A stretch of DNA of 54,280 nt from Acidobacteriota bacterium. Its GTDB lineage: Bacteria; Acidobacteriota; Vicinamibacteria; Vicinamibacterales; CAVVIG01. Each line of letters starts with the position of its first letter. Position 1 is the stretch's first letter. Where the stretch lies: the NCBI GenBank assembly GCA_028876655.1, contig JAGWRA010000118.1, positions 1-54,280 of the forward strand. The letters run 5' to 3'. Under the pieces are notes generated by a model. It worked only from the letters and a program-made list of their open reading frames with translations. It did no database searches and was not told the origin of the DNA. Below are positions 8,723 to 54,280 of this stretch, piece by piece. The translations under genes were made by a program, and so were the position numbers.

Positions 8723-11185
8723 TCAGTGGCGCCCCCAGAGCAGCTCGAAGAAGCCGTCGAACGAGCGCGGCGCCGGGTTGTAGGTGGTCCCGTAGGCCGC
8801 GTTCGCGACGTCGGTCTGGATGTCGCGGGCGTTGTTGGCCGAGACGAGGTTGAAGACCTGCAGCCCGAGGCGCGCCGCCGGCAGCCGCCGCGACACCCGC
8901 ACGACCTTGTAGAGGGCCAGGTTCAGCGAGGCGAACGGCGCATAGCGCTGCCCGTTCTGCAGGCCGACGACGTTCCACTGGTCGTCGATGGCGGTGTAGG
9001 GGAAGCCGCTGCGGACCTCGACGAACGGTGACAGGCTCAGCTGGAGCGGGAGCTGCAGCAGCCCCCAGGTCAGCAGCCGGTTCGGCGTGTCGACGGCCAG
9101 CGGCCCGATGGCATCGGGTTGCACGAGCGGGACCTTGAACAGCCCGTCGATGGTGTTCAGATCGTTCAGGTCTCCGGTCGTGGAGGACCGCACGTAGGAG
9201 ACGTACCACTCGTTCCCGTTGCCGAGCGAGCGGTATCCCACGGTCGTCTCCACGCTCCAGGCGTGCGACCGGCCCGTGCTGCCGAGGGCCAGTACGCCCG
9301 CGGTCGCCGACAGGATCTCCGGCGTCACGACGGGCTCGTCGGTGCCCTGCCGGTCCTCGTACTTCACGCGCGTCAGCCAGCCGCCGTGGAAGTCGTGGTC
9401 GAACTCGAGGCTCCAGCTGCGGGCCCGCGGGATCCGCATCGGCCCGCTGACCGTGTTCTGGTCGAGCCGCGCCGGGCCGTCGGCGGTCCCCTGAACCGTG
9501 TACAGCTGAACGAGCCGGGCGGGCAACTGGCCAAAGGTCAGCGCCTGCAGCACGACCTTGTCGGCGAACACCCCGAATCCGCCGCTGAGGGTCGATGCGC
9601 CGCCGGGCAGCTTCAGCGTCCACCCGAGCCGGGGCTCCACCACGCCCGAGACGGCGGCCGACGACCGGTCGTAGCGCAGACCGAGATCGACCGTCAGCGG
9701 GTTGATCGGTGTCCAGCTGTCCTGGAGGAAGGCGTCCGCCTCCCAGGTCGAGGCCGCCAGCACGGCCGCGTCCGGAAAGCTGATGGTCTGGCCGAGCGTG
9801 CCGTCGCTGCGCAGGAACGACACCGGCGCCCCCTGGTCCCGCCCGGTGGTCGTGGCGTAGCTGACCGTCGCGCCGGCCTTCAGCAGGTGCTGCTGCCTGC
9901 CCGCCGACACCAGCCGGCTCAGCGTCGCGCCGGTTTCCACGCGGTCGGCCGTGTCGCTCTGCGTGTCGAAGTAGCTCCCGGTCGTCACGTCGTGGCCGAC
10001 CACGTAGGGATCGGTGCCGTGCGGCACGACCGAGTCGTCAGTGTGGATCACCGCGAAGCGCGACTCCAGCGTGGTCGATCCGCCGAATGTCAGGCGGTCG
10101 GCCGCCGTGCCGCTCCAGCCCCCCTGATGGAGCTGCGGGTTGGTCGCGAGCGGGGTGAACTGCGTGACGCCGGCGTAGTCGGTCGTCTGCGGATCGCTGA
10201 GGAACGAGAAGCTCAGGTGATGCCGGGCCGTCGGCTGCAGGTCGAGCTGCGACATCGTCGTCAGCGACGTGAACAGGTTGAACTGCGTGCCGGCCGCCGT
10301 CTCGAACTGGTTCTCGTTGTACTGGTAGTCGAGCGACTCGGCGAACCAGGCCTTGCCCTTCACGATCGGCCCGCGCAGGCCGACGCTCGGCTCCCACGAC
10401 TCGACACCGCCCAGGAATCCGCTCCCGCTGAACCGCATGCGCGGAACGAAGCCGATGGTGCTGAACTGGAACAGATCGCTGCCGGGGCGGGTGTCGACGG
10501 TCGTGACGCCGCCCGACGCGTCGCCCAGATCGGCGGGATAGAACCCGGAGTACACCTGGATCGAACCGACCGACTCGAGCGGAATGATCGTCGACGGCTC
10601 GCCGTTCAGCGGATCGGACTCGTTGAAGCCGTTCATCCGGAGGCCGCCCTGCTCGGTGCGCGCCCCGGCGACGCTGATCTGGCCGTCGGGCGCCCGGACG
10701 ACGTTCGGCAGCAGCGGCAGCGCGTCGGTGTAGACGTTGTTCCACAGGAGCGCGTTGTCGAACAGCTTGCGCGTGACGATGGCCGGCCGGTCCACGCCCG
10801 GGCTCGAGACGAGCGCGTGCGGCTCGGCCACCACGGTGACCTCGGTGTTCAGCGCCGCCAGCTGCAGCGTGACGTCCACCTCGAGCGGTGGCGAGCCGAC
10901 CAGGACGTCCGCACGCGAGTAGCCCTGGAATCCCGCGAGGGCGGCGCGCAGGTCGTACCGGCCGGCAGGCGCGTGGATGGTGTAGGTGCCGGTTTCGTCG
11001 GTGACCGCCGTCAGTGGCGTCCCCGAGGGGCGCGGCACCAGCTCGACGGTCACGCCCGGAAGCGCGAGACCGCTGGCGTCAACGATCTTCCCGTGGACAC
11101 CGCTGTCGCCCGCCGCGAGGGCGGCGACGCCGAAGCCTGCTGCCAGGAGGACGGGCAGCACGAGACGCCGCAGGCTCACAATCAT
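8723..11185 (-). CDS. TonB-dependent receptor-like outer-membrane protein with N-terminal carboxypeptidase-regulatory-like domain
   Basis: Signal peptide; VHGKIVDASGLALPGVTV...TDETGTY; plug-like LPNVV...SGGV; AFLQDSW..LTVDLGLRYD and PRLG barrel motifs. Confidence 0.8.
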   Translation of the reverse strand: MIVSLRRLVLPVLLAAGFGVAALAAGDSGVHGKIVDASGLALPGVTVELVPRPSGTPLTAVTDETGTYTIHAPAGRYDLRAALAGFQGYSRADVLVGSPPLEVDVTLQLAALNTEVTVVAEPHALVSSPGVDRPAIVTRKLFDNALLWNNVYTDALPLLPNVVRAPDGQISVAGARTEQGGLRMNGFNESDPLNGEPSTIIPLESVGSIQVYSGFYPADLGDASGGVTTVDTRPGSDLFQFSTIGFVPRMRFSGSGFLGGVESWEPSVGLRGPIVKGKAWFAESLDYQYNENQFETAAGTQFNLFTSLTTMSQLDLQPTARHHLSFSFLSDPQTTDYAGVTQFTPLATNPQLHQGGWSGTAADRLTFGGSTTLESRFAVIHTDDSVVPHGTDPYVVGHDVTTGSYFDTQSDTADRVETGATLSRLVSAGRQQHLLKAGATVSYATTTGRDQGAPVSFLRSDGTLGQTISFPDAAVLAASTWEADAFLQDSWTPINPLTVDLGLRYDRSSAAVSGVVEPRLGWTLKLPGGASTLSGGFGVFADKVVLQALTFGQLPARLVQLYTVQGTADGPARLDQNTVSGPMRIPRARSWSLEFDHDFHGGWLTRVKYEDRQGTDEPVVTPEILSATAGVLALGSTGRSHAWSVETTVGYRSLGNGNEWYVSYVRSSTTGDLNDLNTIDGLFKVPLVQPDAIGPLAVDTPNRLLTWGLLQLPLQLSLSPFVEVRSGFPYTAIDDQWNVVGLQNGQRYAPFASLNLALYKVVRVSRRLPAARLGLQVFNLVSANNARDIQTDVANAAYGTTYNPAPRSFDGFFELLWGRH

Positions 11186-11318
11186 GGATAACGTCGCCGA
11201 TCGTGCCGGTCTTTACCGGCGCTTCCCGGGAACCTTCTCCGTTAGACCGCTGGCGCAGGGGGGACGTGACACGATGGAAGGCGACCTGGACGGTCGTGGC
11301 GGCCGGGGAAATTTCCTC

Positions 11319-12758
11319 TCAGTGCGGATGAGCTGCCTCGCGGAGGATCGCCGCAGATTCCTCGGCAAGATCCTGCACGCACGCGTCGATCTGCGCGTGG
11401 CGCGTCCGGAAGCTGAGCACGCAGACACGGCCGAGGAAGCGGCCGGCGGCGGTGCAACCGGTGAGCATCACGCGTCCGCGGGCGGTGACACGCGCCAGCA
11501 GGCTGCGGGTGGCGGCGTTCTCGGCGTCCGGGCTGGCGCCCGGCCACGTCAGGTGGAAGGCGAAGAGCGACAGCTGGGGCGGCGCGTCGAGGACGATGCC
11601 GGGGATGGCGGCGATCCGCCGGGCCGCCTCGACGGCGAGCGCCCGCTTCTCGGCAATCGCCGCCCGCAGCCGGGCCGCGCCGAGCAACTGCACGCAGAGC
11701 CAGACGCGCAGCCCCGGGAAGCCGCGCGACAGTTCGGGGCCGTGCTGGCTGGGATCGTAGAATTCCGAGGCATCCGGCATCGGCGGCAGATACGGCGCGT
11801 CCGCCTCGTGCGCCGCCCGCAGGGCCGCGCCGTCGCGCACGAGCAGGGCGCCCGTGCCGTAGGGCAGGAACAGCCCCTTGTGCGGGTCGAGCGTCAGCGA
11901 GTCGGCGCGCGGCAGGCCGGCGAGCAGCGGCCGCAACTCGGGGCAGGCGTGGAAGAAGGCGCCGTACGCGCCGTCGACGTGGTGCCAGAGCCGCTCGTCC
12001 GCGCAGAAGTCGGCAATCGCGTCGAGCGGATCGACCGCGCCGGTGTTCGTGGTGCCGGCGGTCGAGACCACCATGAACGGCGTCAGGCCGGCCGCGCGGT
12101 CGCGCGCCACGGCGTCGGCCAGCTCGGCCGTGCGCATCCGGAACGCCTCGTCGACCGGGATCGGCCGGACGCGGTCGGGCATGATGCCGGCCAGCTTGGC
12201 CGACTTCAGCACCGAGTGGTGGACCTGGTTCGAGGCGTACAGCACGCCGCGCCGGATGTCGGGGCCGAGCTGGCGCTCGCGCGCCGCGACGATGGCGTTG
12301 AAGTTCGCCATCGATCCACCCGTGGTCAGCAGGCCGCGGGTGGTCTCGGGGAACTGCATCCAGTCGCGGAACCAGTCGAGCACGTTCGCCTCGAGCTGCA
12401 CGAGCGCGGGCGCGGCGAGCCAGATTCCGGTGAAGCGGTTCGCGGTGTCGGCGATGAGGTCGGCCAGTGCGGCCGGGAACAGTCCGCCCCCGGGGATGTA
12501 GGCGAGGTAGCCGGGCGAGATCGTCGTGAACGACTGCGGGATCCAGCGGTCGAAGAGCTGCGCGAGGAGCGGCTCGAGCGCGGCCGGCTGTTCGGGCGCC
12601 GGCGCCCGCATCGCCCGGTACTCGTCGAGCGCATCGACGCGGCCGCAGGCCGGCTGGCTGGCGGCCGACGCCACGTGCGCCACGGCGCGGGCGAGCACGG
12701 CCTCGCCCATCGCGCGCATCACGTCTGGGCTGAACTCGAGATCGGCCGGGTCGGTCAC
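11319..12758 (-). CDS. Group II PLP-dependent decarboxylase (aromatic L-amino acid decarboxylase-like)
   Basis: GGSMAN, HHSVLK, AGTTNTGAVD, HVDGAYG and DPHK motifs; GTG start at 12758 after GGAGG. Confidence 0.88.
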   Translation of the reverse strand: MTDPADLEFSPDVMRAMGEAVLARAVAHVASAASQPACGRVDALDEYRAMRAPAPEQPAALEPLLAQLFDRWIPQSFTTISPGYLAYIPGGGLFPAALADLIADTANRFTGIWLAAPALVQLEANVLDWFRDWMQFPETTRGLLTTGGSMANFNAIVAARERQLGPDIRRGVLYASNQVHHSVLKSAKLAGIMPDRVRPIPVDEAFRMRTAELADAVARDRAAGLTPFMVVSTAGTTNTGAVDPLDAIADFCADERLWHHVDGAYGAFFHACPELRPLLAGLPRADSLTLDPHKGLFLPYGTGALLVRDGAALRAAHEADAPYLPPMPDASEFYDPSQHGPELSRGFPGLRVWLCVQLLGAARLRAAIAEKRALAVEAARRIAAIPGIVLDAPPQLSLFAFHLTWPGASPDAENAATRSLLARVTARGRVMLTGCTAAGRFLGRVCVLSFRTRHAQIDACVQDLAEESAAILREAAHPH

Positions 12759-12824
12759 GTGCACCTCCAGCCCCACGATACTGCGCCCGGGCCGCGGCCG
12801 GCTATCCGCAACGTGCGGTTCGAA

Positions 12825-12930
12825 GAGGACTTCGCCGAAGGCCACGCGAGCCCGAGGACATGCGGATCCGAGGGCGAGCGTCGGCGTCGGTTCCGCGCGG
12901 GGGTGGGGCCCCGCGCGCACTGAAGAATGC
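12825..12930 (+). repeat. Dispersed palindromic repeat, family A (copy 3, long form)
   Basis: GAGGACTTCGCCGAAGGCCA...CCGAGGA...ATCCGAGG...CGCGCGGGGGTGGGGCCCCGCGCGCACTGAAGAATGC; close match to 43492-43597. Confidence 0.88.
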
Positions 12931-12955
12931 CCGGGTTCGGGGCAGAGCCCCGGGT
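12931..12955 (-). repeat. Palindromic repeat, family B
   Basis: Reverse complement contains CGGGGCTCTGCCCCGAACCC, matching CGGGGCGCTGCCCCGAACCC at about 29378. Confidence 0.6.
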
Positions 12956-12956
12956 C

Positions 12957-14522
12957 TCAATGCGCTGCGACGGTGCCCGGCTTGCCGCTCGGCCGGCGCA
13001 TCAGCAGCACCAGCGGGAGGGCGGCGAAGAACAGCAGGCCGAACCAGAGGAAGATCTCGACGAACGACATCATCGTGGCCTGCCGTTCCACGGTGCCGAA
13101 GAGGGCGAGGTAGGCCTGGTGGGTGGCGGTGGTCGGGTCGGAGCCGGCCGCCATGAAGCCGGCGCGCATCTCCTGCAGGAGGACGCGCGAGGTCTCGCTG
13201 TACGCGTTCACGTGCGCGCCCATCACGTTGATGTGCACCTGCGCGCGGCGCGCGAGCAGGGTCGAGGCGGTCGCGATGCCGACGCTGCCGCCGATGTTGC
13301 GCATCACGTTGAACAGGCTCGTGGCGTTCCCCATCCGCTCCTTCGGGATCGGGTCCATCGTGATCGTGGTCAGCGGCACGAAGACGAATGCCATCCCCAT
13401 CCCCTGCACGAACTGGGGCCAGAAGATGTCCCAGTAGCCGGCGTTCAGGTTGATCCAGGACAGCCAGACGAGCGTCCAGGCGCTCACGCCGACCCCGATC
13501 GCCAGGATCTTCCGGGCGTCGTACTTGCCGAGTATCATGCCGACGATCGGCATGAAGATGAACGACCCGATGCCGCGCGGGGCCATGGCGATGCCGGCCT
13601 GGAGGGCCGGGTAGCCGAACAACGTCTGGAGCATGATCGGCAGCAGCACGAGGCTGCCGTAGAGCACGAATCCGAGCGTCGTCATCAGGAAGACGCCGGT
13701 CGCGTAGGTCCGCTCCTGGAACACGCGCAGGTCGACGACCGGGTTGCCGACCAGCAGCTCCCAGACGATGAACGCCACCAGCAGCACGACGGCCGTGATC
13801 ATCAGGCCGGTGATCCACTGCGACGAGAACCAGTCGACCTCCTGCCCCTTGTCCAGCACCACCTGCAGCGCGCCGATGCCGACCGCCAGCATGCCGATGC
13901 CCCAGTAGTCGATCCCCTTCTCGCTGCGGCGGATGTAGGGGGGATCGAAGATATAGAGCTTCGTCATGATGAGCGAGACGATGCCGACCGGGATGTTGAT
14001 GTAGAACACCCATCGCCAGCTGTAGCTGTCGGTCAGCCATCCGCCCAGCACGGGCCCGAGAATCGGCGCGACGACGATGCCGAGGCCCCAGAAGCCCATG
14101 GCCTTGCCACGCTCGTGCGGCGGGAAGGCCTCGAGCAGCACGGCCTGCGAGATCGGCTGCAGCGCCCCGCCGGTCGCCCCCTGGATGACGCGGAAGAAGA
14201 CCAGCATCGGCAGGTTCGGCGCGAGCCCGCAGAGGAACGAGGCGACCGTGAAGCCGGCCACCGACGACATCAGCAGCCGCTTGCGGCCGAACGTGTTCGC
14301 GAGCCAGCCGGTGATCGGCAGGATGATGGCGTTCGCCACCAGGTACGACGTGAGCGCCCAGGTCGACTCGTCGACCGTGGCCGACAGGCTGCCCGCGATG
14401 TGCGGCAGCGACACGTTGACCACCGTGGTGTCGAGCACCTCCATGAAGGTGCCGAACATCACCGCCACGGCGATGATCCAGGGGTTGATGTGCCGGTGTC
14501 CCGGCGAGACGTCGTCTGTCAT
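12957..14522 (-). CDS. emrB: DHA2 family MFS efflux permease (EmrB/QacA)
   Basis: FMEVLDTTVVNVSLPHIAG, W..TSYL, GRKR, APILGPVLGG and WRWVFYINIP motifs. Confidence 0.92.
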   Translation of the reverse strand: MTDDVSPGHRHINPWIIAVAVMFGTFMEVLDTTVVNVSLPHIAGSLSATVDESTWALTSYLVANAIILPITGWLANTFGRKRLLMSSVAGFTVASFLCGLAPNLPMLVFFRVIQGATGGALQPISQAVLLEAFPPHERGKAMGFWGLGIVVAPILGPVLGGWLTDSYSWRWVFYINIPVGIVSLIMTKLYIFDPPYIRRSEKGIDYWGIGMLAVGIGALQVVLDKGQEVDWFSSQWITGLMITAVVLLVAFIVWELLVGNPVVDLRVFQERTYATGVFLMTTLGFVLYGSLVLLPIMLQTLFGYPALQAGIAMAPRGIGSFIFMPIVGMILGKYDARKILAIGVGVSAWTLVWLSWINLNAGYWDIFWPQFVQGMGMAFVFVPLTTITMDPIPKERMGNATSLFNVMRNIGGSVGIATASTLLARRAQVHINVMGAHVNAYSETSRVLLQEMRAGFMAAGSDPTTATHQAYLALFGTVERQATMMSFVEIFLWFGLLFFAALPLVLLMRRPSGKPGTVAAH

Positions 14523-51712: not shown

Positions 51713-52179
51713 TCAATCGACGAGCCACGCCGGCGTTCCGCTGGACAGCGTCAGCAGATCGGCCGGCGCGAGCTCGAGCTCGAGGCCGCGCCGGCCGCCG
51801 CTCACGTAGATCGTCTCGTATGCCAGCGCCCGCTCGTCAGATAGAGCGGCAGGTGCCGCTTCTGGCCGAGCGGGCTGATGCCGCCGACGACATAGCCGGT
51901 GGCCCGTTCCGCCGCCGAAGGATCGGCCAGCGCGGCGGCCTTCGCCCCCGCCGCCGCCGCCATCAGCTTCAGGTTCAGGCGATCGAGGACGGGGATGACG
52001 CCGACGACGAGCGTCCGGCCATCCAGCTCGACGACCAGCGTCTTCAGCACGCGTGCCGCATCGACGCCGAGCGCCGCCGCGGCTTCCTCGCCGAACGACG
52101 CTCGTCCCGGCGCGCTCGGATAGGTGTGGACGCGGTGGGGAATGCCGGCCCGCTCGACGAGCCGGACGGCGGGCGTCAT
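51713..52179 (-). pseudogene. ybaK: Cys-tRNA(Pro) deacylase YbaK, frameshifted (one base missing near 51839)
   Basis: MTPAV...KTLVV...TGYVVGGISPLGQK in one frame; the expected C-terminus DERALAYETIYVSGGRRGLELELAPADL continues in another frame to TGA at 51713. Total length 467 nt is not a multiple of 3. Confidence 0.85.
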
Positions 52180-52197
52180 GTCAGGCGGCAGGAGCGG

Positions 52198-52824
52198 TCA
52201 GTACTCGTGTTCGCGGACCCACTTGGTGCTGATCCACTTCTCGCCGGCCACCACCGGCATCCCGGCGTGCAGCGTCCGGCGATCGATCTCGCCCGCCGGC
52301 GTGCAGTCGTAGAAGAGCACCGCCGCCCGCTTCCGCGGTGAGACCGTCAGGCCGATTTCGGGAAAGTGCGTCTCGCCGCCCGCCTCGACGTCATTGAGGT
52401 ACATGATCATCGTCAGGACCCGCTGCCCGCCGTGCTCGGCCACCACACGGCTTCCCGGCAGATCCGGATCGAAGAAGTCGAAGTGCGCCTGGTATTCCTG
52501 CCCCGGCAGGTAGCGGATCACCTGGAGCCCTTCGCCGTGGGTGACCGGCGTTCTGGTCAGCTGGGCGATCCGCTCTTCGATCGTCTTCACCACGGGCGTT
52601 TCGCCCCGGGTGAAGAACATCGTGTCGCTGCTGCGCGTCTCCACCTCGACCAGCTTGCCGGTGGCGGCATCGACCGTGACCGACCGCGTGACCTTCGCCC
52701 GGGCGTTCTCGACGAGATGCTCGCACTCGGCATCGTCGAGGAAGTCGGGAATGTAGGCCACGTACGGCGACAGGCTCAGGACGTCGATGTAAATGGTGCG
52801 AGGGGTGGACTGCGCTTCGGCCAT
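52198..52824 (-). CDS. Prolyl 4-hydroxylase (2OG-Fe(II) oxygenase), no signal peptide
   Basis: VLSLSP...FLDDAECEHL, RSS, GEGLQVIRY, HFD (HxD), GGQRVLT..MYLNDVEAGGET.FP, LHAG and GEKWISTKW: the full plant/algal/Bacillus-type P4H motif set. Confidence 0.9.
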   Translation of the reverse strand: MAEAQSTPRTIYIDVLSLSPYVAYIPDFLDDAECEHLVENARAKVTRSVTVDAATGKLVEVETRSSDTMFFTRGETPVVKTIEERIAQLTRTPVTHGEGLQVIRYLPGQEYQAHFDFFDPDLPGSRVVAEHGGQRVLTMIMYLNDVEAGGETHFPEIGLTVSPRKRAAVLFYDCTPAGEIDRRTLHAGMPVVAGEKWISTKWVREHEY

Positions 52825-52872
52825 CGTTCGCTCCGCCTTCGCCTTCCGACTCTGCCGATCTGAGAAATTCCG

Positions 52873-52902
52873 TTGACGCTCCGTAGACGCGCGCCTAGTA
52901 TA
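52873..52902. promoter_or_regulatory. Sigma70-type promoter (+) with an overlapping minus-strand -10
   Basis: TTGACG-N17-TAGTAT (52873-52901) on +; TATACT (52902-52897) on -. Confidence 0.7.
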
Positions 52903-52996
52903 TCGCTGACAAAAAATTGGTAATCGATCCCCCGTCAGTGCCGCGAACCGGCTCCTTTCGCGTTCGCCGTACAGGGATGACGAAAGGATACGGTAC

Positions 52997-54280
52997 ATGG
53001 CTCCTCGTGCGCGCAGGAACGGCCTGAATATCACGGACACCACGTCCGGCCTCGTGATCCACGACCCCGGCCGCCGCGAAACGCACCACCTCGATCCCCT
53101 CGAAAGCCTGATCTGGAAGCACGCCGACGGCACCACCAGCGTGGCAGAGCTGGCCTCGCTCGCGACGGCGACCCTGGGCACGGCGATCGACGAGTCGATG
53201 GTTCAGTCGGCCATGACCGCACTCGCCGACGCGGGCCTGATCCAGGCGGACACGGCGCCGGCGGACAGCGTCCAGTCGGCCGCGCGCCGATCGATCATGC
53301 GCCGCGTCGCGACCAGCAGCGTTGCCGCGGCAGCGTTCGGGATCTTCATCGATCGCCAGGCGGAAGCCGCGCGGCCCCACGACAAGGATCGGCGGCCGGG
53401 TGGGGGCGACGAGCACCAGGACGCGGACGTCGACCGGAAACTCCACGCGCTCGAAGAGCAGATCGAAGCGGTCAGGCGGGAGTGCCGCGATGTCGAGGCG
53501 CGCGAGCGTCGCCACGACGGCGCGGAAGAAGAGCGGGCGCATCCCGGTGGCATTCCGGTCAATCTGGCGCAGGGCTGGTACGACGCGGGTCCGCCCTACC
53601 AGTTCGCCGCCTACGGGCGGCGCGCCGGCCTCGTCGTGCTCAGCGGCCTGGTGCGGCCCACCGCCGACGCGACCGCGCTCGTCGGCGTGCTGCCCAGAGG
53701 ATACCGGCCGAACGGGACGCTGCTCTTCAGTCAGAACGCACAGGCTGGCGGAACGACGCAGACGATGACGGTGAGCGTGCAGGCGGATGGCCAGATCCTG
53801 CTGCCGGAGACGACACCCGATCCGTCCGGCTGGCTGAGCCTGAGCGGCATCGTCTTCCTCGCGCGGCATGGCGCCCCGTCGCTGAACGACGGCGACAACG
53901 ATACGGATGACGGCGCCGTCCCGCCGGCGCCTGCACCATCACCGGCTCCGGCGCCCGCGCCATCACCATCGCCGGCACCGTCACCAGCGCCGGCACCTGC
54001 GCCGTCTCCGTCTCCCGCGCCTGCGCCATCGCCGGCACCTGCGCCATCGCCGTCCCCGGCGCCTGCGCCCGCACCATCACCGTCACCGGCACCCGCGCCG
54101 GCACCGTCACCGTCGCCGGCGCCCGCACCATCACCGTCGCCGGCACCCGCGCCAGCCCCGGCGCCGTCACCAGCGCCGGCGCCGTCGCCGTCCCCCGCAC
54201 CTGGGCCGACGCCGGCACCACCGCCGTCGCCAGGTCCAGCTCCGGCCCCCGCGCCCGGACCGGCACCAGCTCCGGCCCCC
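52997..54280 (+). CDS. PqqD/RRE-like domain protein with internal Tat-like signal, beta domain and (Ala/Ser-Pro)n tract (3' end truncated by window)
   Basis: 428 open codons from ATG 52997 after AAAGGA, translated by hand. Begins MAPRARRNGLNITDTTSGLVIHDPGRRETHHLDPLESLIWKHADGTTSVAELA...ALADAGLI, then ARRSIMRRVATSSVAAAAFGIFIDRQAEA; ends in APAPSPSP repeats. Confidence 0.88.
   Translation, partial: MAPRARRNGLNITDTTSGLVIHDPGRRETHHLDPLESLIWKHADGTTSVAELASLATATLGTAIDESMVQSAMTALADAGLIQADTAPADSVQSAARRSIMRRVATSSVAAAAFGIFIDRQAEAARPHDKDRRPGGGDEHQDADVDRKLHALEEQIEAVRRECRDVEARERRHDGAEEERAHPGGIPVNLAQGWYDAGPPYQFAAYGRRAGLVVLSGLVRPTADATALVGVLPRGYRPNGTLLFSQNAQAGGTTQTMTVSVQADGQILLPETTPDPSGWLSLSGIVFLARHGAPSLNDGDNDTDDGAVPPAPAPSPAPAPAPSPSPAPSPAPAPAPSPSPAPAPSPAPAPSPSPAPAPAPSPSPAPAPAPSPSPAPAPSPSPAPAPAPAPSPAPAPSPSPAPGPTPAPPPSPGPAPAPAPGPAPAPAP
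53921..54280 (+). repeat. Coding X-Pro dipeptide repeat (X = A, S, occasionally G, T, P)
   Basis: 120 codons with Pro at every second position (62 Pro by my count), 6-nt periodicity and varied wobble bases. Confidence 0.95.

Follow-up and report, generated by a model that had tools for sequence, protein, structure and literature searches.

In the genome of a soil bacterium of the Acidobacteriota, a gene for a prolyl 4-hydroxylase (P4H) lies head-to-head with a gene for a protein that ends in a long (Ala/Ser-Pro)n tail, and by comparison with a genome of the same genus the two are either both there or both missing. They occupy positions 52198-54280 of the window, that is, of the whole stretch of 54,280 nucleotides that was analysed, which is one contig (C65 of genome G000). 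Because the window is the entire contig, the partner gene has been broken by the assembly inside its repeat. A first-pass annotation had proposed that the two products form an enzyme-substrate pair, in which hydroxylation of the tail in the cytoplasm precedes export of the protein through the Tat pathway. We regard this as a serious candidate explanation, to which we would give slightly less than an even chance.

The enzyme, encoded on the minus strand (52198-52824, 208 amino acids), matches PF13640 with an E value of 1.1e-15, and its kinship with algal P4H was borne out. Its best solved relative is Chlamydomonas P4H-1 (2jig/3gze, E = 3.5e-46), to which it is approximately 50% identical over an aligned stretch of 140 residues, and with which it has its catalytic residues and its small monomeric size in common; further matches are the P4H of Bacillus anthracis (3itq, E = 4e-37), human C-P4H alpha2 (7zsc, E = 7e-34) and the P4H of the virus PBCV-1 (5c5t, E = 2e-21). 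All the Fe/2OG residues are kept. The iron triad His-x-Asp...His (H114, D116 and H186) aligns with that of 2jig and is invariant in 25 aligned relatives, as are Y105 and K196, the latter ten residues past the distal His, and Y111 is nearly invariant; the roles of the aligned residues in binding Fe and 2OG and in contacting the target proline are those given in PMC9676403. No gaps interrupt the alignment with the Chlamydomonas enzyme in the substrate hairpin region. Taken together, these matches support an algal/collagen-type peptidyl P4H, predicted to hydroxylate peptidyl proline. By inspection it has no signal peptide, so it is presumably cytoplasmic. The conserved neighbours of P4H relatives reflect order-level synteny in Burkholderiales and are uninformative about the substrate.

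The diverging gene, which the first-pass annotation had correctly noticed as missing from the track of open reading frames (ORFs), begins with an ATG at 52997 on the plus strand and is still open at 54280, encoding 428 amino acids so far; the track omitted it because such a gene is listed only if ORFs running off the end are requested. Five modules follow one another in its product: first a PqqD/RRE fold and an internal Tat-type signal, then a coiled coil and a beta domain similar to phage receptor-binding heads, and finally the repeat. The protein is therefore more than the leader and repeat first envisaged, since the coiled coil and a head-like domain of about 105 amino acids lie between them. 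The first module (residues 1-85; 52997-53251, plus strand) was modelled by AF2 with a pLDDT of 91-98, and the three strands (E11-15, E18-23, E28-32) and three helices (H34-42, H49-60, H66-78) of this winged-helix-like fold all exceed 90. In Foldseek, with TM scores normalised to the target, it matched the lasso peptide B1 protein 6jx3_B (0.75), TbiB1 (5v1u/5v1v, 0.69-0.70) and PqqD (5sxy, 0.58). The Pfam model PF05402 falls below its cut-off on this protein (E = 0.011) and just above it on the paralog (23.9 bits versus a cut-off of 23.4). The model thus supports the RRE proposed at this N-terminus, for which leader binding or delivery is a putative function. A prediction of the complex between the P4H and the RRE domain (residues 1-92), run without controls, gave a score of 0.00 and weighs neither for nor against contact.

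The twin-arginine signal-like segment, read from the sequence at about residues 96-125 (53282-53371, plus strand), consists of the arginine pair with hydrophobic residues after it, then 15 mildly hydrophobic residues and an Ala-x-Ala site. R97 and R98 are nearly invariant among 44 family members and TatC is encoded on contig C184 of the same genome, so that the Tat-like segment claimed at first pass holds and would fit modification ahead of export. The motif begins at residue 97, behind a folded domain of 85 residues and not at the N-terminal position by which Tat signals are recognised; it might act as a signal or as a signal-anchor, with export and possibly cleavage. Beyond it lies a long single helix, a presumptive coiled-coil stalk (residues 139-181; 53411-53539, plus strand; AF2 H139-181, block-mean pLDDT approximately 64-95), followed by a beta-sandwich at about residues 185-290 (53549-53866, plus strand; pLDDT >90). 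The latter resembles gp15 of Listeria phage PSA (6r5w, E = 5e-5) and the heads of lactococcal phage receptor-binding proteins (RBPs; 2fsd and others) in Foldseek, its relatives match PF08931 weakly, and giant proteins contain 3 to 26 copies of the domain. An acidic Asp/Asn/Gly linker (53882-53914, plus strand), conserved with the paralog in a pairwise alignment, leads into the tail.

The tail itself covers residues 308-428 (121 residues; 53918-54280, plus strand; TRF arrays at 53922-54231), where the contig end cuts it, and the claim of at least 120 residues of APAPSPSP was thus upheld. Proline fills 60 of 60 alternate positions and one of the 59 others, and X is Ala (35) or Ser (19), with a few Gly or Thr; Ser-Pro and Ala-Pro glycomotifs of the arabinogalactan-protein (AGP)/extensin type are present and repeated. 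The DNA repeat is imperfect (66-71% matches) and the Pro codons are mixed; the X-Pro pattern has thus been maintained at the protein level and does not stem from recent slippage. No other ORF of the genome with a coding-like GC pattern in its non-repeat part has so long or so dense a Pro tract, and the longest strict (X-P) run in the genome is 98 residues in the partner versus 34 for the next longest outside it (contig C146). In bacterial proteins, however, Ala-Pro linkers commonly serve as unmodified spacers, which weighs against a hydroxylated tail.

How does the gene end? Only two contig ends, those of C65 and C84, carry Ala-Pro repeat frames; the end of C246 also passed the Pro filter, without being an X-Pro repeat. 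Based on synteny with the same-genus genome G002, C65 joins C84, which as judged from the sequences completes the partner gene: on the minus strand of the C84 end, the tail continues for 61 further residues and ends in Pro-Pro-Pro-Gly-Gly-Phe and a stop codon. All three genes of the genus with known ends (C84, the paralog on C58 and its G002 orthologue) terminate in Gly-Gly-Phe. The tail length is a lower bound of at least approximately 180 residues, for a protein of approximately 490 residues or more. None of the listed contig pieces extends farther, the compared stretch having ended at 53950.

A comparison with G002 revealed how the two genes are placed. In G002, a YbaK gene and an SDR gene lie 56 bp apart, and in G000 the P4H and partner genes are inserted between YbaK (on C65) and the SDR gene (on C84); because the flanking genes abut in a genome of the same genus, the pair is a single two-gene indel. 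One edge of the insert is the native YbaK-like aminoacyl-tRNA editing gene (51802-52179, minus strand; PF04073, E = 1.2e-15), 18 bp downstream of the P4H stop. A "proline theme" suggested by co-transcription with YbaK was dropped, given that G002 has its native YbaK gene without a P4H. The 172-bp intergenic region common to both genes (52825-52996) contains a sigma-70-like site at 52873-52901 on the plus strand, ahead of the partner gene (one promoter-like site versus 0.1 expected from shuffles; a consensus match only). The junction of the two genes is real, as it is bridged by single contigs from runs of two studies (X1, 52643-53584; X4, 52372-53079); X1 is possibly the source sample. The flanks are ordinary: YbaK, an aldo-keto reductase and RecQ on the C65 side, and the SDR gene with syntenic housekeeping-type genes on the C84 side, with no glycosyltransferase, peptidase or exporter on either. 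A look beyond 54280 thus recovered the C-terminus and none of the accessory genes that had been anticipated there. Because both flanks lack such genes and the insert holds two genes only, with no leader protease or exporter adjacent, neither the suggested Hyp-O-glycosylation nor a RiPP-like multi-gene route finds backing; glycosylation is unsupported and lies outside our best reading.

How might the pair work? An algal/collagen-type P4H adjoins a long Ala/Ser-Pro repeat protein, and it is therefore plausible that the enzyme hydroxylates the tail. On the reading that we prefer, the partner would be made in the cytoplasm, where the soluble Fe(II)/2-oxoglutarate enzyme would form 4-hydroxyproline in the C-terminal (Ala/Ser-Pro)n tract of at least approximately 180 residues. 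The modified partner would then be exported by the Tat pathway via its internal twin-arginine signal, and the RRE-fold domain, which might hold back export or recruit the enzyme, would either be left on the cytoplasmic side or be cleaved off at Ala-x-Ala. The resulting mature protein, which may form trimers, would present a coiled-coil stalk with a phage-RBP-like (lectin/adhesin-like) head, and then a long, stiff rod of the polyproline-II type ending in Gly-Gly-Phe.

Parts of this scheme have known counterparts. Chlamydomonas P4H-1 has been crystallised with (Ser-Pro)5, and this enzyme and the plant type-1 P4Hs have (Ser-Pro)n substrates of the AGP/extensin type, which our candidate tail of Ser-Pro and Ala-Pro dipeptides resembles, as described in PMC9676403 and PMC3355594. 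The algal and plant P4Hs, however, work in the ER/Golgi, whereas the enzyme described here, lacking a signal peptide, would meet its target in the cytoplasm, ahead of export; the algal enzyme has a disulfide (Cys230) where ours has Met, and the AGP/extensin systems have dedicated Hyp-glycosyltransferases, of which there are none nearby here. The B. anthracis P4H (3itq, 5hv0) is a bacterial, cytoplasmic-type, single-domain member of the same family, for which, to our knowledge, neither a natural substrate nor a Pro-repeat neighbour is known. The PBCV-1 enzyme is more distant (E = 2.4e-21) and its system is viral; we are aware of neither gene adjacency nor an RRE or a Tat signal for that enzyme and its repeat proteins. 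According to PMC3634087, it hydroxylates Pro-Ala-Pro-Lys repeats, favouring Pro before Ala, and one genome thus combines a small soluble P4H with X-Pro-rich repeat proteins hydroxylated in vitro, the same gene combination as here. The repeat region of the PBCV-1 capsid protein P14 (6ncl) is matched by our tail in composition. Lasso peptide B1 proteins and PqqD, from RiPP systems, share the RRE fold and a tailoring-type enzyme encoded next door, but here it is the presumed substrate, and not an enzyme or chaperone, that carries the fused RRE, and the "core" would be a folded protein with no protease or exporter gene adjacent. In the literature searched, we found no description of an RRE ahead of a Tat signal, and papers containing both terms look unrelated by title; a term search of PMC12710340 returned no mention of this arrangement.

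The strongest alternative, which we consider doubtful though well worth weighing, is that the two products have no enzyme-substrate relation: the tract would be an unmodified rigid spacer, equivalent in function to the Gln/Glu/Lys-rich tails of its relatives, and the P4H would act on another cellular protein, as its relatives in other bacteria must do. Among the species searched, the pairing of a P4H with an (X-Pro)n partner occurs in one only, so that the conserved linkage predicted at first pass failed to appear. At 27 other loci with P4H relatives (34-61% identity), a strict (X-P)8+ run occurred in none of 3627 ORFs and an RRE-Tat neighbour at none of the 27. Three coding-plausible long ORFs, followed up from many Pro-rich six-frame matches near P4H relatives, were RNase E, PBP and one unknown, a Pro/Lys/Glu-rich protein 2.6 kb from a P4H relative in Vampirovibrio. 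In 401 Acidobacteriota genomes, listed RRE-Tat modules and PF13640 genes lay within 10 kb on one contig only here and in genome G281 (8 kb), as judged by comparing the tables by eye; this screen was not exhaustive, since it missed the oxygenase on C58. A metagenome scan with a two-row alignment yielded 15 mostly short contigs, none with matches to the P4H, ox2 or ATP-grasp. Moreover, where the Pro tail stands, all other full-length members of the family have charged tails that contain no proline, so that the chemistry of the tail looks interchangeable. Against this, the genome's only collagen-type P4H sits head-to-head with its most extreme Pro repeat, both genes come and go together relative to G002, and a second PF13640 gene adjoins the only paralog of the partner. 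Two rare features are thus found side by side, and we count this in favour of a pair: the P4H was found in none of 60 relatives at E<=1e-10, and a Pro-rich tail in none of 52 other family ORFs, nor in any of the five other fetched full-length homologues that keep a long tail.

The paralog raises another alternative. The genome holds two PF13640 genes over the cut-off and two family members, each oxygenase within approximately 1.1 kb of one member; the second oxygenase, on C58, is approximately 1 kb from the paralog, whose tail contains no proline at all. The cluster around this paralog also includes a RimK-like ligase. Therefore, P4H-like enzymes beside this family need not act on Pro repeats, and the target might instead be a single conserved proline, or a few of them, within the region common to both paralogs (the head domain or linker); this would resemble Skp1 or EF-Tu, where prolyl hydroxylation affects a single site, and the repeat would be incidental. 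Although both paralogs have a P4H-like neighbour while only one has a Pro tail, and although Pro233 and Pro238 are invariant in eight full-length homologues, we hold this to be improbable. Identity between the two oxygenases is just 27%, against approximately 50% between their partners, so that the two were not inherited together as a pair acting on one common site; the enzyme on C65 is nearest to the repeat-hydroxylating P4Hs; and no oxygenase neighbour was present at those loci of other homologues that could be fetched. It is highly improbable that the enzyme's substrate is free proline or a small molecule, or that the repeat is not translated as Ala/Ser-Pro, for although the repeat is open in all three forward frames, with nothing specific in favour beyond this, the best matches are all peptidyl P4Hs, the Ala/Ser-Pro frame is continuous with the conserved 305-residue part, and the C84 end, of the same frame type, ends in the Gly-Gly-Phe of all three genes of the genus with known ends.

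The tails of all other family members are rich in Gln/Glu/Lys or in Cys, and because they lack proline tracts, the family as a whole is not one of hydroxyproline proteins. Its RRE-Tat leader type is widespread and unnamed, occurring in 101 of the 401 sampled Acidobacteriota genomes. A word-index homology search with residues 1-305 found only the own paralog among 8000 candidates sharing most words (167-534 aa); a protein atlas returned only PqqD-labelled hypothetical clusters (scores 0.75-0.76), which we note as leads. Extending the enzyme-substrate reading to this wider family, we entertain, with considerable reserve, the idea of a bacterial Hyp-rich rod, an (X-Hyp)n tail of approximately 180 residues or more on an adhesin-like protein, in which the RRE and the internal Tat signal would constitute a general device to modify first and export afterwards, one that would also serve the many small Cys-rich members, as well as the paralog, which is accompanied by an ATP-grasp and the second P4H-like enzyme.

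No natural substrate of a bacterial P4H of the collagen type is known to us. According to a review (PMC3634087), 4-hydroxyproline is reportedly lacking in bacterial and viral proteins. If the tail is not hydroxylated, the locus would encode an ordinary spacer-tailed surface protein beside an orphan P4H. If the hydroxylation is true, the partner would be the first genetically defined substrate of a bacterial P4H, and the pair would represent a microbial route to Hyp-rich polyproline-II rods, relevant to work on recombinant collagen and HRGPs. It would also assign a function to the RRE-before-Tat type of leader.

The gene that diverges from the prolyl 4-hydroxylase (P4H) gene begins with an ATG at 52997 on the forward strand, 172 bp from its neighbour, and is still open after 428 residues at the contig end; the window is one full contig (C65) of the source genome, G000 (4.19 Mb, 281 contigs, G+C ~71%). 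We modelled residues 1-305 of this partner protein with AlphaFold2 from 44 family sequences (mean pLDDT 81.9) and searched the model with Foldseek. First, residues 1-85 are predicted to adopt a PqqD/RRE fold, which matched the lasso-peptide B1 protein 6jx3_B, TbiB1 and PqqD with TM-scores, normalised to the target, of 0.75, 0.69-0.70 and 0.58, respectively; the Pfam PqqD match is weak in the partner (E 0.011) and slightly above the cut-off in its paralog. Second, a low-confidence linker with a helix at about residues 96-125 contains RR and hydrophobic residues, followed by a mildly hydrophobic stretch of 15 residues and Ala-x-Ala; it has the motifs of a Tat signal but not the N-terminal position, and we regard it as a putative signal. 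A TatC gene is present in G000. Third, a single long helix (the stalk, residues 139-181) precedes a confidently modelled beta sandwich (the head, residues 185-290; 53549-53866), whose top Foldseek matches are phage receptor-binding-protein heads, namely Listeria phage PSA gp15 (E 5e-5) and lactococcal phage heads. An acidic linker follows residue 290, and the strict X-Pro repeat that begins at residue 308 places proline at 60/60 alternate positions, with X being Ala in 35 and Ser in 19. Because the DNA of these units is only 66-71% matched and four proline codons are in use, the periodicity is under selection at the protein level. The first-pass annotation had described an RRE-Tat-(Ala/Ser-Pro)n protein; those three modules are all present, and the stalk and head had been overlooked.

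The P4H gene (52198-52824, reverse strand) encodes 208 residues with a PF13640 match at E 1.1e-15. Among solved structures its best match is Chlamydomonas P4H-1 (2jig/3gze; E 3.5e-46), followed by the Bacillus anthracis enzyme (E 4e-37), the catalytic domain of human collagen P4H alpha-2 (E 7e-34) and the PBCV-1 viral enzyme (E 2e-21). When aligned with 24 relatives, the protein shares H114, D116, H186, K196 and Y105 with all of them and Y111 with nearly all; by their spacing, these residues match the iron triad, the Lys and Tyr that bind 2-oxoglutarate, and the Tyr in contact with the target proline in algal and human P4Hs, as described in PMC9676403. With these defining residues present, the protein belongs, judged from its sequence, to the collagen/algal P4H family. 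Because the N-terminus has neither a hydrophobic nor an RR segment, and because a Met occupies the position of a disulfide-forming Cys in Chlamydomonas P4H-1, we read it as a probable soluble, cytoplasmic peptidyl P4H, in agreement with the original assignment.

Is the junction between the two genes real? Near-identical short contigs, which come from the same species as G000, occur in sequencing runs of soil, sediment, wastewater and mine drainage from four studies. Single contigs span the junction in run X1 (52643-53584, 0 differences), which may be the source sample of G000, and in run X4 (52372-53079, 2 differences), which also spans the junction between P4H and the adjacent YbaK gene (52121-52375). 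These bridging contigs rule out an assembly chimera; they carry no weight as independent evolutionary support.

Three G000 contig ends (C65, C84 and C246) passed a screen for proline-rich frames, and only C65 and C84 carry Ala-Pro repeats; the C246 end is Pro/Arg-rich and lacks the X-Pro pattern. On C84 (7177-7359, reverse strand), a 61-residue Ala-Pro frame ends in Pro-Pro-Pro-Gly-Gly-Phe, directly before a stop. In the same-genus genome G002, the C84 genes run directly into those of the C65 end, in the order molybdo-enzyme, two further genes, SDR, YbaK 56 bp on, aldo-keto reductase and RecQ. Therefore, C65 and C84 adjoin in G000, and the partner is 489 residues long or longer, some 180 or more of them in the X-Pro tract. 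P4H and its partner, which are exactly the extra content of G000 in the YbaK-SDR interval, form a two-gene indel. At this site the congeneric genome G003 has a peptidase-like gene and G001 a different gene, so the insertion site is variable; the reductase-SDR interval differs across all four genomes of the genus. Beside the aldo-keto reductase of G001 (C231; L090 3-1172, reverse strand) lies a secreted repeat-domain protein that has an Ala-Pro/Gly-Pro linker of its own. Glycosyltransferases, peptidases and exporters had been named as genes to look for beyond 54280; with that sequence retrieved on C84, neither flank of the pair contains a glycosyltransferase, peptidase, transporter or integrase.

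Outside G000, P4H and its partner are not linked beyond chance. The enzyme was not found at E<=1e-10 in 60 relatives from the genus, family and order, and its nearest relatives, at 27 loci, are scattered: Vampirovibrio chlorellavorus is the closest (58-61% identity), with Burkholderiales, Microbulbifer and others at 34-51%. The proposed co-localisation was not borne out at these loci, where none of 3627 ORFs has a strict (X-P)8+ run or an RRE-Tat module. Proline-rich six-frame ORFs are numerous in the high-G+C loci; of the three long, coding-plausible ones followed up, two are an RNase E and a penicillin-binding protein. A third, in V. chlorellavorus (L035 13192-16902, reverse strand), lies 2.6 kb from P4H and encodes 1237 aa, secreted, with Pro/Lys/Glu/Ala-rich repeats and no Pfam match; another isolate (L034) conserves it in part. 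Two neighbouring gene families are conserved among Burkholderiales relatives (L036-L055; 13/27 and 8/27 loci) and offer no evident hint about the substrate.

A full HMMER scan with both paralogs returned 5016 matches at E<=0.001, of two kinds. The first contains the head domain alone, in 3 to 26 copies and proteins of up to 4821 residues; giant proteins of 1000-4800 residues from the representative library (P0006-P0009) have 3, 6, 9 and up to 26 copies, and the frequent copy number of three may hint at pseudo-trimers. The second contains only the N-terminal module, in proteins ~100-300 residues long, ordered as RRE fold, Ser/Gly-Arg-Arg-x-hydrophobic motif, h-region and Ala-x-Ala, with tails that are mostly short and Cys-rich, sometimes Gln/Glu/Lys-rich and rarely otherwise. 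Those with Cys-rich tails (L091-L125; e.g., L101, G433:C5:1-5000, and L111, G395:C9) are ~160-230 aa long with an internal twin-arginine signal and a short Cys-rich C-terminal peptide, often occur in 2-3 tandem copies, and resemble exported peptide precursors whose leader contains an RRE. Of six full-length or nearly full-length homologues retrieved from the library, P0014, P0047, P0025, P0042 and P0032 have Gln/Glu/Lys-rich tails, and P0033 terminates at the head domain. Across 45 fetched loci, the 52 ORFs that bear the module include none with a proline-rich tail longer than ~30 residues. The module (E<=1e-5) occurs in 101 and PF13640 in 92 of 401 sampled genomes of the phylum; in a by-eye comparison of the places listed, which did not include the C58 oxygenase, the two lie within 10 kb on one contig, among the matches listed, only in G000:C65 and G281:C177 (8 kb apart). 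On this evidence, the family as a whole is not P4H-linked; the link is specific to the two stalk-and-head members of the genus of G000.

Within G000, the linkage does exceed chance. The 4.19 Mb contain two PF13640 genes above the cut-off (tblastn and Pfam model) and two members of the partner family (family profile). One oxygenase, P4H, is head-to-head with the proline-tailed member, whose Pro repeat is the most extreme in the genome. The other (27% identical to P4H, with P4Hs again as its best solved relatives) lies ~1 kb from the only paralog, on contig C58 (~9977-13000; L009 3978-7005), where it follows a RimK-like ATP-grasp ligase gene (PF08443; best solved relatives RimK) in an operon convergent to the paralog, an arrangement shared by G002. 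The paralog is ~50% identical to the partner over the first 300 residues and has a Gln/Glu/Lys-rich repeat tail; the locus is possibly a second tailoring system, one whose target is a tail lacking proline. The G002 orthologue (G002:C3; L031 ~8790-8830) shifts frame near residue 60, through either an assembly error in this 20-contig genome or a real frameshift. Gly-Gly-Phe also terminates the paralog (L009 ~5350) and its G002 orthologue (L031 ~7724), and is thus common to all three genes of this genus although their tails are chemically unrelated; a sorting or anchoring signal and ligase recognition are candidate roles.

How might the two genes work together? The best-supported reading, which we hold tentatively, is that the cytoplasmic P4H would hydroxylate the X-Pro tail and the folded protein would then leave by Tat. 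We favour it because the enzyme is akin to those acting on (Ser-Pro)n and Pro-Ala repeats, because a rare enzyme is matched with a rare tail, because the two genes were gained or lost jointly, and because of the logic of Tat export. Against it stand its restriction to a single species, the proline-free paralog beside an oxygenase, and the ordinariness of Ala-Pro spacers. These last points leave some room for the rather unlikely view that the genes are unrelated neighbours and the tail an unmodified spacer, against which the pairing of both oxygenases with both family members must be set. The proline-free paralog would suit a conserved proline in the part shared by the paralogs as the substrate, which we consider improbable beside the enzyme's kinship with repeat-modifying P4Hs. 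That the enzyme instead takes free proline or a small molecule, or that the repeat is not read as Ala/Ser-Pro, is very improbable, as the top matches are all peptidyl P4Hs and the Ala/Ser-Pro frame runs on from the conserved 305-residue part; readings beyond these have a similarly slight chance.

Tail hydroxylation followed by Tat export retains the core of the first-pass proposal and drops its RiPP-like, glycosylated route to an AGP/extensin-like fibre: the insert differs from a RiPP cluster in having two genes only, and from the plant HRGP pathway in having no glycosyltransferases nearby. The portion of the literature covered contained no description of an RRE fold ahead of a Tat signal, which a term search of PMC12710340 likewise failed to turn up, or of a bacterial P4H whose Pro-repeat substrate is genetically linked to it. 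We speculate, from two loci only, that the type of tail tracks the neighbouring chemistry, a proline tail with P4H and a Lys/Glu/Gln tail with an ATP-grasp ligase and a divergent oxygenase. The main appeal of P4H and its partner is that the idea is directly testable with two genes.
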